Assembly: GCA_963713855.1 (NCBI GenBank)
Contig: OY970209.1
Span: forward strand, 640,001 to 704,000
Origin: an uncultured bacterium
GTDB lineage: Bacteria; Babelota; Babeliae; Babelales; Babelaceae
DNA: 64,000 nt
Reading direction: 5' to 3'
Position numbers: made by a program
In this document: piece by piece, positions 44,301 to 49,059 of the stretch
Layout: each line of letters starts with the position of its first letter
Numbering within the stretch: the stretch's first letter is position 1

Positions 44301-47300
44301 AATGTAGGGTAAACGCCCTTTTCAACAAGATCATGGGCCTCTTTGCATCCCTTTGAGTCGAGTGTTTTATAAAAAAGATCTGTATTGTTCTCCTGAATCT
44401 CATTAGCGGTCAAGTGAGCCCCAGCACTTTCAAGCACTTGAACGATCTCTTGATTGCCGTTCTTTTGTGCAAAATAGAGAAGACTCGAAGGTCTATGGTC
44501 CCGGCTGCAGTAATTGTACCAATCATCGTTCTCCGTGCACACTAAAAGCGCGTACTTATACTTATCGAGGCTTTCAGGTGTCGCTGACTCAATAAATAGC
44601 TGTGCCCAATCGAACTTTCCGTCAGCAATAGCATCTCCGATAAGTTCCACGATTCGGGAAGAACTAACTCGCCCACCTAAGCCCATAAGCTTTTGAGAAG
44701 CTTCGAGATTTCTTCCTTCTAGCGATTTGAGAAGAGCATCATTTACTAGTTCATTAGAAAAAGTTTTATTACAAAAGAGAGGTATGAAAAGAAGAAGTGC
44801 TATTAAATGGTGTGATGATTTTCTCATAAAAGTTCCTTTCAACTTAACTACCTGAGTTACAAGCACTCTTAAGCTACCGTTAGAAATAAGAATTTTTCAT
44901 GAAAAACCTTATACCACTAGTATACTTACTATTATGAAATACACAAGTATTCATGAACTTTAGATTCATCGCTAGAACCTGTCTTGAAGACGATCAACCT
45001 AATGCAAGAAAGCGTCGATTCGGCCAGTATCCCGCTCGAAAGCCTTGGTAGATTTTTAGAGCAACTAGAGGTCTTCCAGGTGAATCATAGTTATGAAGAT
45101 GAGCTCTAACTAAATATAAACGCTCTGCTAGATTTTCAAAATGCCTAGCAGAGCGTTAAGAAATTGAAAGCAAATTGCATTACCGGCGTATATACCAGAA
45201 CACTAAAGCAAAAACTGCAAAGCGTGCAACATGATAGCCGGCATCGATTAAAAATGATGTCATGCTGCGGCCAGAAAATTGATAGTTAATGCCAATCGAT
45301 GGCGCAACAAACAGCAAGCCGATAACCAATGCTGCCTTTACTAAATCCGTCAATGAGCTTATGTTTTCATAAAGGTACGCAAAGCCAATAGCACTGACGA
45401 TTGTGTAAAAAAACGAGATAATAAATGGAGCAGTTCCTTTTGATTTGAACTCTTCAACACTCAAACCAAACTCCTTGCGCCACATTGACCCAAACAAATA
45501 AGGAGAGTACCAAAGACTTCCCAGTAAGAAACTTGCAACGCTTGCGATCGCAATTGCTAATATGTGCATATACCTACCCTTTCGGATTCTGCGTAAAAAA
45601 TTCCACTCACACCTCTTGTCGATAAGCAGTCTAGCACGCCAAAAAAAACAAGCAAGTGCTTGATTCACTACATATACCAATTTATTACACGCGTAAAAGT
45701 GGGTTATGTTTTTTGTTAATTGATACAAAAAAGATAGGGATTGCTTGAACGTATTATTTCATCTGCAACTTTTTTAAAAAGATGTTTTTATACGCTGTCA
45801 AAATGGGCAAGTAGATCACATACTCAGCTTAAAGCCCTAGCCTCAAACTCATAGTATGCGGTAGTATAGGAGGGTTGCTGGTGTGGATTGCCGACAAAAA
45901 CGCGCTTTATTAAATTGAAATAGTGGATGAGCAATGATATACATAATTGTCTTCTGGTATTTGTTCATATTTTTTCAATGCATCGATGGTCTGGCACGGC
46001 AAGAACTATGTAGCGATGTAGTCACGCGGCGCCCTTATGCGAGTCGAAACAGCCACATGTTTCTTCTTAAAAGTAAGGAAACGCAATGGCTCATAAAGCA
46101 GAGAAAAGGTGCTTACGTCGACTCACAGCTGACGCCTGTGCTTGAGACACTGGGTACAAGCATGGCTGAAAGAATTGGTATTATCTGTAATCACGTGCGT
46201 CTTGTTCCAATTAATGCATGTAAAAAATATAAGCGAGCAAAAAATCGGCCAGCTACGCTTCACTCGTTGGTTCCAGGCGTATCACCGCGAGCTACAAAAC
46301 ATATGGCATCGCTTAATATCCATCAGACTATGGAACGACCGTGTGGTAAGAAGTGTGGCTTTACAAGACCGGTCATATCAGGTATGGCACTACATGCTTC
46401 GTTGCCGGCAATTGTAGCGCTTGATACCTTTATTGGTAACAGCGATCGCAGCTCTGTCAACTTACTTTATGATCCCAACACTGATAATTTTTATGCGATT
46501 GATTTTGGATTCAGTTTTAAATCTAATCTTGCAAAGGGGGCATTAGCAACTTTGATCGCGCTTGATGGGTCTCGCGCAGTCTTGTCGCTTTCTGAAGTAC
46601 AAGCACTTACAAAGTACAGGGACACTTTGCAGACGTTGTTGACGGTTTATAGGCCCGAAACAATGATTGCTCAATTTCGTGTTCTAGTAAAGCAGGCTGG
46701 ACTTTTTAGTAAGAGTGCCTCTTTTGCTGAGGGCAAAAAAAAGTTGAAACAAACCTTGGCTCTACATGAACGATTTATGCACGATACGCATCATTCCACA
46801 ACTAAGCTTGTGCGTTATTTAAATGAAGCTTTGCCGCGTTTTCAAGGTCGTATACAACCGGAACCACAGTGAGGAGTGCATCATGTTAAACAGTAGATCG
46901 GTGTTTTCTATTTTCCTATTTCTTTCTTACGGTCTTGCTTTTGGTGCTAAAAAAGATGGCATCTGCGACGACGTTGTTGCTAAAAATCATTTTGCTGCAA
47001 TGTGTAGTCATATATCTTTGTTGCGTAAAGCAGATCGCTCGCAGTGGCTTATAAAACAGCGCAGAGATTCATCAATAAACGGACAGTTTATATGTGTAAC
47101 GGAAACGCTTGGTGGTAGTATGGCCGAGTTTTTAGGTATTCCGTGCAATAAAGTAAAACTTGTTCCCGCTCATAGTTGTACGAAATATAAGAAATACAAA
47201 AACTATCCTGCGACTTTGCATAATTTTTTACCGGGAAAAATGGCCTGTTATAAACGCGTTAATATTTACCAACCAGTTGGCAAGCGGTGCCGTAATTTTT

Positions 47301-49059
47301 GTGGTATGAGTGACGATGTGGTTAAAAATATGTCACAGCATCCAACCTTGCCGCTTATTGTCGCTTTGGACACCTTTATGGGGGGCACGGATCGCGGTTG
47401 CGCAAATGTAATGTACGACGAAAAAACAAACACATATTATGGAATCGATTTTGGTTCTGGCTTTAGTGCGAATTTAGCTGGCATAGCTCTTGAAAATATG
47501 AAACTCATAGAGAGAATGCTCGTCTTTACTCCTGCGCATATTGAGGGACTTACCATTTACCGTAATGCCTTAAAGCGCTTGGTAAATTGGTATAAGCCGA
47601 GTGTTGTGTATGCAAGGCTTGAAAGCCTCGCTCACGAGGCTGGCCTTTTTGCAAAAACGAGCTTCTACACTAAAAATAAGGCAAAGCTTAAAGAAAAGCT
47701 TTCTAGATCTAAAAAATATATCTATGAAAGTTACGCTTCAACGGTGGCCCTCATTCGTTACCTCGATCAAAAGATACCTCAATGGAATGCAAAAGCTAAT
47801 CAACTGCCGAAAGCTTGATCATGCAAGGGGCATGGTCTACGATGTGTACGCTTTTAGGAAGCGCAAAATGTTCCCTTTTTAACGTAACTGATTGAGTGCC
47901 ATGTTTAAGGCCTTTGCCCGGAATATAAATTGTTTTCTGTTTTCTGGTAAGTGATCGTAATGAACGGCGTAGCCCTCTAAGTGTTAGATTGATTTCTTTT
48001 GGGGCATCCTCAAGAGTTTGGTTTTTACTAAGTTCAATTGATACCTCAAACGGGTATATTGCTTCTACAAGATAGCGGTCGCTCCATAGGGACCAGAGTA
48101 TGTATGCAATAATGCAGGCAGCTACGTAAGAAACACTCTTGCTTTCAAGGGCTATAGTATGCTTCATGCCAAGTCCTTTGCACTTTCTTTACCTCTTTCT
48201 GAATATGCGTAGACATTTAACTGCCGAGGCAAGACAAGATAACGTTTTATAAGAGCACATGTGTGCGATGCAGTCAAACCTTCAATGATTTTTCCTTGAA
48301 CGATGCACGAAAATAGTCGTGTTTGTGGCGATAGCGAAAGGACAAAGGCATCTGTTTCTTGGGTTAATATAAGTGCTTTTTTTTGCCATGTGCACAAAGT
48401 TTCTCCACTTGTATCTTTGTACACCCTATTCAAAATGGGATCTGCATTGAACGCCTTTATGCTTCCATTCTTTGTAATCCATACAAAATCGGTATCCTGT
48501 TTTGCGTCGATGATCATCTTAACGAGCTCGCTGTGCATTTGTGCATTAAGAAGATACGCGGGGACGAGGATTTTTTGTAAAGTGTCGTCCCGTTCGATTA
48601 TAAAAGGTATTTCTTTTTGCTTTGCAACGCCATATAGTGAAGCTCTAACGAGTTCGTCGACCCAAAGATAATGGACCGGATAGGGCGGTTTAAGTCTCTT
48701 TGCGCCAAGAGGGTAATTTTGAAGCGTTTGATGATGCGTCATGATGAGTATCATAATGACAACGGGGCTGCCCCATAAAAGAAGTGAGCTTACTACATAA
48801 AGCTGTGTATAGTACGTTATTCCTGTAAGAAAAGCGTAGGCGTAGAAGCTTTTAAGTGGGCGGTAGCTTGTGTCGTGCCGAAGCCAGCTTATAAAATAGT
48901 TGATAAGGTACCAGAGAATACTTATTTCTACAACGTCCTGCCACGCGTAGATGTGCAAAGTATCACGTAGAATGGTCATTAATATTTGTACCACGGTTAC
49001 CTTTCCTTTAGAAAAACTACTATACTAGAGATGTCTAGCTATATGAAAGATTTGGGTAA

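Follow-up and report, generated by a model that had tools for sequence, protein, structure and literature searches.

What do two adjacent kinase-like genes do for a parasitic bacterium of the order Babeliales (Dependentiae/TM6), and where would their products act? The pair lies at positions 45934..47818 of the window, by which we mean the whole stretch of 64,000 nucleotides that was analysed. Dependentiae parasitize protists and are widespread, though hardly any have been cultured, and their supposed effectors are mostly ankyrin-repeat proteins of unknown action. A preliminary description had presented the two genes, with two paralogs elsewhere in the genome, as secreted kinases bearing a phosphoinositide 3/4-kinase catalytic loop.

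Two tandem genes and their paralogs

The features of the pair are as follows; those of gene 2 marked as readings were taken directly from the sequence.

45934..46872, plus strand: gene 1 (P0001), an ORF found in the window, predicted 312-aa exported atypical kinase
45934..46002, plus strand: N-terminus of gene 1, MIYIIVFWYLFIFFQCIDGLA, signal-like by hydrophobicity heuristic, helix 2-23 in the model
46096..46098, plus strand: codon of K55 in gene 1; this lysine on strand beta3 (motif LIKQRK) is predicted to bind ATP
46420..46461, plus strand: catalytic-loop segment of gene 1, LDTFIGNSDRSSVN, with D164, D171, R172 and N176
46498..46509, plus strand: IDFG of gene 1, in which D190 is the predicted metal-binding aspartate
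46873..46876, plus strand: GGAG, putative ribosome-binding site of gene 2, abutting the TGA stop of gene 1 (reading)
46883..47818, plus strand: gene 2 (P0004), 311-aa paralog of gene 1 with the signal-like N-terminus MLNSRSVFSIFLFLSYGLAFG
47054-47062, plus strand: lysine motif KQR of gene 2 (reading)
47366-47407, plus strand: catalytic loop of gene 2, LDTFMGGTDRGCAN (reading)
47444-47455, plus strand: IDFG of gene 2 (reading)

In gene 1, residues 1-23 form a hydrophobic, signal-like helix, in which G-L-A is a possible cleavage site, and residues ~30-305 make up the kinase domain. The full ORF of gene 2 (46823-47818, plus strand) is longer than the gene chosen. Its most likely start is the ATG at 46883, since GGAG lies 6 nt upstream and a 311-aa protein with a canonical signal-like N-terminus results. 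With only 10 nt between them, the genes look like a single operon; a promoter and terminator scan returned nothing exceeding shuffled controls. The two proteins share 38% identity (E 1e-81).

A protein search found four paralogs in the genome, and a family HMM run over its 1053 ORFs of at least 150 aa recovered exactly these four. Paralogs 3 and 4 are unlinked to the window pair, giving three loci. All four retain the five catalytic residues as well as an acidic alpha-C residue (E/D71), and each begins with a signal-like segment with a hydrophobic h-region and, by the heuristic, plausible small residues at -3/-1. ORFs, family HMM and alignment thus bear out the earlier picture of four proteins of ~310 aa that combine a signal-like segment with a compact, catalytically intact kinase domain. 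Another ORF, of 821 aa (genome positions 1463938-1466403), gave a weak HipA_2 match and is not a family member by the HMM.

The catalytic loop and the family models

In a 50-row alignment K55, Q56, A107, M151, A162, D164, R172, N176, D190 and L232 are invariant. The catalytic loop reads D-R-x-x-x-N, preceded by D164 and followed by the metal-binding D190. Across 146 aligned members K55 is found in 146, D190 in 145, D164 in 144, R172 in 143 and N176 in 142; D171, the presumed catalytic base, is present in 123 and lost in 23, and all five catalytic residues are retained in 120. The longer motif previously proposed, GNxDRxxxN...IDFG, describes the two window genes but not the family: paralogs 3 and 4 read IDFT, and among the 146 members D190 is the only conserved residue of the IDFG stretch, followed by M, F or L at 191 and by G at 192 in just 44. 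We also considered the co-occurrence of C26, C85 and C96 as a disulfide sign and rejected it, as the 19 members (of 146) with both C26 and C85 belong to one subclade and relatedness explains the pattern.

At curated cut-offs neither of the two nearest Pfam models recognizes gene 1: HipA_2 (PF20613) scores 24.4 bits (E 2e-5; cut-off 27) and PI3_PI4_kinase (PF00454) 23.4 bits (E 6.5e-5; cut-off 27.1), the latter over residues 157-201 only. Gene 2 is likewise below cut-off, with 15.4 bits for PF00454 and 11.4 bits for HipA_2. Genome-wide, HipA_2 scored three paralogs at 21.6, 19.1 and 16.5 bits, and PF00454 left all four under its cut-off. NCBIfam yielded a weak TIGR03843 match and nothing else. 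The earlier statement that the family has no Pfam model is therefore right at curated cut-offs but needs qualifying, since the precomputed database label of the gene 1 protein is PF20613.5 and two-domain family members exceed both the HipA_2 and the PF00454 cut-offs (the latter by summed score). Exhaustive phmmer searches gave 362, 260 and 36 representatives at E 1e-3, 1e-10 and 1e-30, and 122 of the 150 matches listed measure 270-350 aa. These counts, like the below-threshold Pfam scores and the AlphaFold2 and Foldseek figures, reproduce those first reported. Names of cluster members for 10 homologs were uninformative; ESM Atlas clusters, which serve as leads only, are unnamed or partly labelled HipA_2 or PI3_PI4_kinase. 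Judged by sequence, the results support a sizeable family that no curated model catches at threshold.

Does the loop identify a phosphoinositide kinase, as had been proposed? A test for the PF00454-type loop (D-R-H-x-x-N plus the downstream D-F-G aspartate) found D171, R172, N176 and D190 present, and position 173 of gene 1 is S instead of H. The LDTFIGNSDRSSVN segment aligns with PF00454 positions 134-178, and also with the mTOR catalytic loop. At E <= 0.01 HipA_2 matches 34 of 50 members (best E 2e-9) and PF00454 29 of 50. When the family profile was compared with PDB sequences, only the mTOR/TOR2/Tel1 catalytic loop was found (best E 0.079); CtkA was absent among the 20 sequences matched at E <= 1. 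The same loop thus occurs in HipA_2 and in the mTOR/Tel1 protein kinases, and its reading as a phosphoinositide 3/4-kinase signature has to be given up.

Predicted fold and substrate

The AlphaFold2 model of the gene 1 protein is confident (pLDDT 93.9, pTM 0.89). Foldseek searches of the PDB matched it to Helicobacter pylori CtkA (3akl_C, E 2.8e-6) and Vps34 (2x6h_A, E 3.0e-6), and the model matches CtkA over its whole length. By this predicted fold, the kinases belong to a structural branch shared with CtkA, CotH, type II PI4-kinases, actin-fragmin kinase and HipA. Protein kinases account for four of the five nearest solved folds, and small-molecule kinases fall well below the top structural tier. 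A viral structure library gave fold-level matches only, to phage and giant-virus PI3/4K-like and Ser/Thr kinases (TMq <= 0.52).

The predominance of protein kinases among the nearest folds, together with the lack of lipid-kinase accessory parts, tips the balance somewhat towards a protein substrate over a phosphoinositide. It is unlikely, if still credible, that the proteins are phosphoinositide kinase effectors that would phosphorylate host phosphatidylinositol or PIPs and change host membrane identity. Legionella MavQ, LepB and LegA5 phosphorylate such host lipids. The 29 PF00454 matches among 50 members would fit a lipid substrate, as would the basic character of the mature kinases (pI 10.0 and 9.6 for the window genes; family median 9.2), which would suit acidic membranes, and the presence in the neighbourhood of a PF04488 glycosyltransferase, from a family that we take to include enzymes acting on lipid head groups. 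However, the PF00454 match covers the catalytic loop alone and stays under cut-off, HipA_2 matches equally well or better, and the sole PDB sequence matches are protein-kinase PIKKs. Moreover, in the AlphaFold2 model only ~8 residues separate D190 from the next helix (H199), which leaves no long basic activation loop, and the protein is one 312-aa domain without a helical or C2 accessory domain. The preliminary description had rightly called the substrate a guess and named a HipA-like kinase as an alternative that deserved weighing; remodelling of the membrane around the parasite by these kinases is speculation.

Putative export signal and possible secretion route

The claim that the proteins carry a signal peptide holds insofar as all four paralogs have a hydrophobic, signal-like segment, but the call comes from hydrophobicity heuristics, applied here as a permissive and a strict rule. 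By the heuristic, 114 of 160 retrieved homologs have such a segment, and the Chlamydiota copies, inspected by eye, have a signal-like N-terminus too. The segment could instead be an uncleaved membrane anchor.

The genome is that of an energy parasite, with 3-4 tandem TLC ATP/ADP translocases. It encodes two secretins (122 and 103 bits) and two T2SS-E ATPases (479 and 408 bits), parts that may belong to either a T2SS or a pilus system. As for T3SS, T4SS and T6SS markers, searches of the genome for VirB4, FHIPEP and VipB gave none. Among its 54 ankyrin ORFs, a signal-like N-terminus is called in 50 by the permissive rule and in 32 by the strict rule, which flags 261 of the 999 other ORFs (26%). 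Since the organism is an energy parasite with T2SS-type parts, no detected T3SS, T4SS or T6SS markers and ankyrin proteins bearing a like N-terminus, the view is supported that Sec-signal proteins would be the expected host-directed set in this genome. No feature of the kinases marks them as T2SS substrates. Published Dependentiae genomes give comparable figures: a signal peptide on 44% of CDS and 78% of ankyrin proteins (PMC6561590), 79 of 126 ankyrin proteins with a signal peptide (PMC4378268), and T2SS parts with two gspD copies in all TM6 genomes (PMC4776705). There, the authors interpret the pattern as secretion into the host (PMC6561590, PMC4378268, PMC4776705).

We conclude, with somewhat better than an even chance of being right, that the two genes encode Sec-exported, host-directed atypical kinases whose substrate would sooner be a protein than a phosphoinositide. 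After crossing the inner membrane by Sec, the single-domain kinases would reach the protist host cell through the T2SS-like secretins or by way of vesicles, and would there use host-cell ATP to phosphorylate a host target. Delivery into the host cell is thus the probable fate that these sequence features suggest.

Distribution and genomic neighbours

A degenerate DNA pattern that encodes the ALDTFxGNxDR motif served to gather loci of relatives; the gene 1 protein alone, searched against the genome contigs, found no relative. The pattern returned 30 loci, of which 23 hold family members by the HMM; the other seven (L016, L019, L021, L025, L028, L043 and L034, the last with just 13.5 bits) were discarded. 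The three motif matches on viral contigs represent fusion proteins of cyanobacterial type instead of the signal-bearing form, and a scan for fusion partners in 11 longer relatives gave repeated kinase domains or nothing.

Of 261 Dependentiae genomes, 27 have the family, which there forms tandem arrays and reaches as many as 8 matches per genome; in a Chlamydiota-centred sample of 300 genomes, 9 have it, as a single copy. The median terminal branch is 0.92 substitutions per site. Patchily distributed, fast-diverging and repeated in multi-copy tandem arrays, the family looks less like a housekeeping enzyme than like a factor in host interaction. The signal-bearing clade was seen in Dependentiae and Chlamydiota only. 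Free-living members without an obvious signal also exist, in Croceifilum oryzae (L027) and as Nostoc-type fusions with a transmembrane segment (L035, L048-L050), so the fold is not tied to host manipulation.

Could the kinases instead work for the bacterium itself, in the periplasm or at the surface, phosphorylating envelope proteins, glycans or lipids with host ATP? Host ATP must cross the periplasm to reach the TLC translocases, and such a site of action is therefore feasible. Dependentiae and Chlamydiota are known ATP importers, TLC translocases being demonstrated here for this genome only. The signal-like N-terminus, the translocases and the restriction of the signal-bearing clade to these two groups would all agree with extracytoplasmic kinases, likened to CotH acting on spore-coat proteins and Fam20 in the secretory pathway. 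Yet patchiness (27/261 and 9/300), variable copy number and fast divergence are a misfit with a core envelope function, no envelope gene, Omp85 included, is conserved next to the kinases, the product of the gene that does recur beside them is similar to host-targeting glycosyltransferase domains, and ankyrin proteins, which have no plausible periplasmic role, bear a like N-terminus. We regard this as unlikely. A narrower form seems rather doubtful: that the kinases stay in the bacterium for periplasmic or surface phosphorylation on host ATP, possible only in energy parasites (Dependentiae, Chlamydiota) and in some lineages maybe linked with a DXD glycosyltransferase that is exported too. Were the kinases periplasmic, imported host ATP would enable phosphorylation outside the cytoplasm.

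The genes flanking the kinase loci include DUF1761, a YbbR-like ORF with a DAC-domain gene, an EF-Ts-like gene, an IleRS-like gene and a glycosyltransferase. Paralog 3 overlaps the start of this last gene, a signal-bearing DXD glycosyltransferase (PF04488, E 7.8e-15) whose nearest solved sequence relatives are host-targeting domains of an RTX toxin, Legionella SetA, TpeL and TcdA. A kinase gene and such a glycosyltransferase gene lie side by side at 5 loci, spread over 4 of the 27 kinase-bearing genomes and two Babeliales families only; two of these loci (L003, L031) are co-directional and operon-like. This adjacency could point to a glycan or small-molecule kinase whose joint action with the glycosyltransferase would build or modify a phospho-sugar structure, the acceptor being of host or bacterial origin; POMK/Fam20B and WaaP play such a part in their own pathways. 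We consider such a pairing improbable: 23 of the 27 genomes do not show the adjacency, nor does the window locus; G001, from the same genus, and the 20 members of family f21 are without it; 110 of 261 genomes carry the glycosyltransferase family, many more than the 27 with the kinase; and small-molecule kinases rank low among the structural matches. The two genes may merely share islands.

A HipA-type toxin that arrests growth of its own cell as part of a toxin-antitoxin module is highly improbable, and we reject it. A signal-like N-terminus would take the protein out of the cytoplasm, where HipA targets lie, no HTH (HipB-like) or HipS-like neighbour was found at any of the genome's three kinase loci, the HipA N-terminal domain is missing from the single-domain protein, and tandem arrays reach 8 copies.

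Comparison with known kinases

Exported, host-directed kinases remain our preferred reading. Full-text literature searches (supplements of the genome papers lay outside their scope) found no description of the family. In the three genome papers (PMC6561590, PMC4776705 and PMC4378268) the word 'kinase' is absent from one and occurs twice in each of the other two, never for this family in the passages inspected. The signal-bearing family, with ~360 sequence clusters and common to environmental Chlamydiota, would be among the first enzymatic candidates for Dependentiae action on the host. Its mature domain of ~290 aa, confidently modelled, should be easy to express and assay.

Until now the CtkA-like fold was, to our knowledge, an orphan from H. 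pylori, and the present kinases extend it to a large natural family. CtkA (JHP0940; 3akj/3akk/3akl) is a cell-translocating Ser/Thr kinase; structure-based identity to the kinases here is just 10-11%. For its activity CtkA is reported to need the type IV secretion system Tfs3, whereas the present proteins have a Sec-type N-terminus, a search of their genome gave no VirB4, and their host is probably a protist, that of CtkA being human. The CotH spore-coat protein kinases of Bacillus cereus (5jda/5jd9) are 12% identical; Pfam CotH gave no match at E <= 1, and the organism studied here forms no spores. HipA and HipA_2 kinases differ in having a HipA N-terminal domain and an antitoxin partner, which the present proteins lack, and in lacking the putative export signal.

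Legionella MavQ (7m7a) and Vps34, a class III PI3K, are larger proteins of several domains, in the second tier of structural matches. Legionella delivers its effectors via the Dot/Icm T4SS; in the present genome just Sec and T2SS-like parts were found. Compared with the type II PI4-kinases (PI4KII alpha/beta; 4pla, 4hnd, 8a5x) and actin-fragmin kinase (1cja), the kinases here lack the palmitoylation insert and lipid-binding elements. Of these relatives, PI4KII acts on a lipid and actin-fragmin kinase on a protein; the fold therefore does not decide the substrate.

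A tandem pair of genes for putatively exported kinases

The preliminary description had reported a four-copy kinase family in this Babelaceae genome, with two copies in tandem in the window; we confirmed the observation, and its numbers reproduced. A whole-genome protein search returned four copies, and a family HMM run against 1053 ORFs of at least 150 aa recovered exactly these four, with no further ORF rising above noise. The tandem pair comprises:

45934-46872 (+): ORF 1 (gene 1, 312 aa), from the window ORF call; stop codon at 46870-46872
46823-47818 (+): ORF 2 (gene 2), coordinates of the open frame, from the window ORF call and a reading of the sequence; predicted start ATG at 46883

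When the junction was read, GGAG was seen directly after the gene 1 stop codon, with the gene 2 ATG six bases further on. The predicted start of gene 2 is almost certainly ATG 46883, not the ORF start at 46823; the public gene call for its product (P0004) gives 311 aa. The gene 1 and gene 2 products share 38% identity along their full length (E 1e-81). Since the upstream gene (DUF1761) is divergent and both downstream neighbours, one YbbR-like and one weakly matching the DAC domain, are convergent, the kinases appear to form a small operon of their own. The gene with the DAC (diadenylate cyclase) match, at 47796-48994 (-), encodes a membrane protein scoring E 2e-4, below cut-off, and precedes a small ORF that takes the ybbR position; the two could represent a divergent pair for c-di-AMP synthesis.

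Kinase type and probable substrate

Repeating the searches behind the preliminary description gave the same sub-threshold Pfam matches (HipA_2, E 2e-5; PI3_PI4_kinase, E 6.5e-5; both below cut-off), and exhaustive phmmer again yielded 362, 260 and 36 representatives at E 1e-3, 1e-10 and 1e-30, with lengths of 270-350 aa in 122 of the best 150 matches. Likewise, the AlphaFold2 model had high confidence (pLDDT 93.9, pTM 0.89), Foldseek placed CtkA (E 2.8e-6) and Vps34 (E 3.0e-6) at the top, and a profile search of PDB sequences retrieved nothing beyond the mTOR, TOR2 and Tel1 catalytic loop (E 0.08-0.7), with OspG weaker. K55, Q56, A107, M151, A162, D164, R172, N176, D190 and L232 (gene 1 numbering) are invariant in a 50-row alignment. 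The reported DFG held for its aspartate but not for its glycine: across 146 aligned relatives the motif is D-(M/F/L)-x, with G in 44. D164 is kept in 144 of these relatives and D171 in 123. The statement that no Pfam model covers the family holds at curated cut-offs only, and Pfam does capture part of it. Two-domain relatives exceed both the HipA_2 and the PI3_PI4_kinase cut-offs, 34 of 50 members match HipA_2 and 29 of 50 match PI3_PI4_kinase at E <= 0.01, and a precomputed database column labels the protein itself PF20613.5. NCBIfam gave a weak TIGR03843 match alone.

We then ranked folds by a search independent of Foldseek over 48,161 PDB representatives, and re-examined the 998 best Foldseek chains. 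A clear first tier of solved structures was followed by a second with Legionella MavQ (10.9), HipT (10.8), Vps34 (about 10.5) and Fam20 (about 10.4); ATM-type PIKK kinases scored up to 10.5, other PIKKs 9-10.2 and class I PI3Ks 8-10. The first-tier neighbours place the modelled kinase in the CtkA/PI4KII/AFK/HipA/CotH branch of the kinase-like superfamily, and protein kinases account for four of the five solved structures nearest to it. In the model, only about eight residues lead from D190 to the next helix, and there is no accessory domain. The GNxDRxxxN...ID loop is a hallmark of this branch and of PIKK protein kinases, not of lipid kinases. The original interpretation is supported in part: the proteins do look like active, exported kinases of a parasite that lives inside cells, but their identification as phosphoinositide kinases is not favoured. 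If the kinase is host-directed, its substrate is slightly more likely than not a protein; a phosphoinositide is less likely and any other molecule improbable.

Genome setting and predicted export

The assembly is one 1.52 Mb sequence, 91% complete, with two large secretins, two T2SS-E type ATPases and 54 ankyrin-repeat ORFs. VirB4, FHIPEP and VipB were not found in it; given this completeness, we do not call them absent. All four kinase paralogs carry a hydrophobic N-terminal segment with plausible small residues ahead of the mature part. A signal-like N-terminus was also called by a hydropathy threshold in 114 of 160 retrieved homologs, and was seen in those Chlamydiota copies that were inspected by eye. 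Among the ankyrin ORFs, 50 of 54 have such an N-terminus under a permissive rule of this hydropathy heuristic and 32 under a strict rule that also flags 261 of 999 other ORFs. The case for a predicted Sec export signal on the four kinases is good but not decisive.

Export alone would fit the main rival explanation, in which the kinases act in the bacterium's own periplasm on host-supplied ATP; three to four TLC ATP/ADP translocase genes lie in tandem at genome positions 915360-919525 (+). No Omp85 or other envelope gene recurs beside the kinases. Since most ankyrin ORFs have a signal-like N-terminus, eukaryote-like proteins seemingly leave this bacterium through Sec, and it is mainly for this reason that we read the kinase signal as one that may reach the host.

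An [A/G/S/C/L]-M-E motif directly follows the hydrophobic N-terminus (e.g. ...HAMED, ...KAMEA, ...SMEGS) in 30 of the 54 ankyrin ORFs, compared to 41 of 999 other ORFs of at least 150 aa; examples in the window are 50845-52968 (-), 810-2597 (-) and 2676-4541 (-). It is absent from all four kinases, and may act as a lineage-specific signal for cleavage or sorting, or may simply be a leader that the paralogs share. The 50845-52968 (-) product, a signal-bearing protein of 707 aa, has C-terminal ankyrin repeats preceded by a long N-terminal stretch that no Pfam model matches. This region resembles, by eye, an 821-aa ORF at genome positions 1463938-1466403 (+), with common stretches such as ...GNLLQIF.P..KVN..VYL..., and the two may belong to a second paralogous exported family.

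A neighbouring glycosyltransferase

Kinase paralog 3 lies elsewhere in the genome, beside a glycosyltransferase:

1314023-1314967 (-): kinase paralog 3, overlapping the start of the glycosyltransferase ORF
1313166-1314023 (-), equal to 614-1471 of locus L003: DXD glycosyltransferase ORF, 285 aa; PF04488, E 7.8e-15; signal-like N-terminus

The nearest solved sequence relatives of the glycosyltransferase are the host-targeting glycosyltransferase domains of an RTX toxin, Legionella SetA, TpeL and TcdA, together with yeast-type Och1. Homologs of the glycosyltransferase adjoin kinase genes, in varying orientation, at five loci (L003, L007/L042, L009, L031 and L039), located in the window genome, in G008, twice in G040 and in G125, or 4 of 27 kinase-bearing genomes. 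The adjacency was absent from the family with most kinase carriers and from the same-genus genome. The glycosyltransferase family itself occurs in 110 of 261 Dependentiae genomes, in up to 15 copies. These data support a location of the kinases among exported, host-directed accessory genes, and weakly suggest that kinase and glycosyltransferase work together. At about 339-387 kb of G040, a same-order genome (L007, L012, L031, L041, L042), five kinases and seven PF04488 matches fall within about 48 kb, an apparent array of genes for exported accessory proteins.

Distribution and evolution

At E <= 1e-10, 27 of the 261 sampled genomes of the phylum have kinase matches. The family to which the window belongs contributes 2 of 40 (the window genome itself not counted), three other families contribute 2 of 7, 2 of 2 and 20 of 80, and the remaining families none. 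Most positive genomes carry several copies (up to 8 matches), and tandem arrangements are frequent. In G236 (C2, 8694-14072, -), a single open frame of 1904 aa contains four or more successive kinase-domain matches; it either encodes a genuine poly-kinase protein or represents a tandem array across which the frame stays open. In a Rhabdochlamydia-centred sample, 9 of 300 genomes had a single match each (one further genome was unscored). Two public MAG entries titled 'uncultured Pseudomonadota bacterium' (L023, L033) have kinase matches coinciding in contig coordinates with those of G256 and G195, which are classed in Dependentiae; the Pseudomonadota label is probably wrong.

Outside Dependentiae and Chlamydiota, a motif scan found one Croceifilum oryzae copy (L027) with no obvious signal. 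It also recovered long fusion proteins that contain a transmembrane segment, from Nostoc linckia (L035) and from three viral-collection contigs (L048-L050, about 100-120 kb). Two of the contig proteins are nearly identical in sequence to the Nostoc protein, and the third is similar in build. These cyanobacterial-type frames (765-791 aa, some running off the fetched stretch) have a region with an HCNGG motif (serine-hydrolase-like, by eye) and a glycine/alanine-rich transmembrane segment, followed by the kinase domain; Nostoc-type copies have IDNG instead of IDFG.

A quick ML tree was built from 32 full-length kinases, excluding frames above 420 or below 250 aa and overlapping-locus duplicates. 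Six Chlamydiota and two unlabelled copies formed one clade, with SH-aLRT 87 and no star; a starred clade (95) united the window pair with copies from the same-genus genome, and paralogs 3 and 4 fell in another starred one (99). The median terminal branch was 0.92. Tree and distribution reflect old paralogy within Dependentiae lineages, fast divergence and patchy retention, a pattern usual for host-interaction genes.

Proposed mechanism

Most likely, the kinases are exported through Sec, released by a T2SS-like apparatus or vesicles, and phosphorylate a host target. The N-terminus suggests the first step; release would be consistent with gene content and the analogy with the ankyrin proteins, and the intact active site and CtkA-like fold point to ATP-dependent phosphorylation. 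A HipA-type toxin was rejected because of the predicted export signal, the missing antitoxin and HipA N-domain, and the tandem arrays. The searchable literature yielded no description of the family. We conclude that the kinases constitute a new and uncharacterised family, belonging to the already known group of secreted atypical bacterial kinases.
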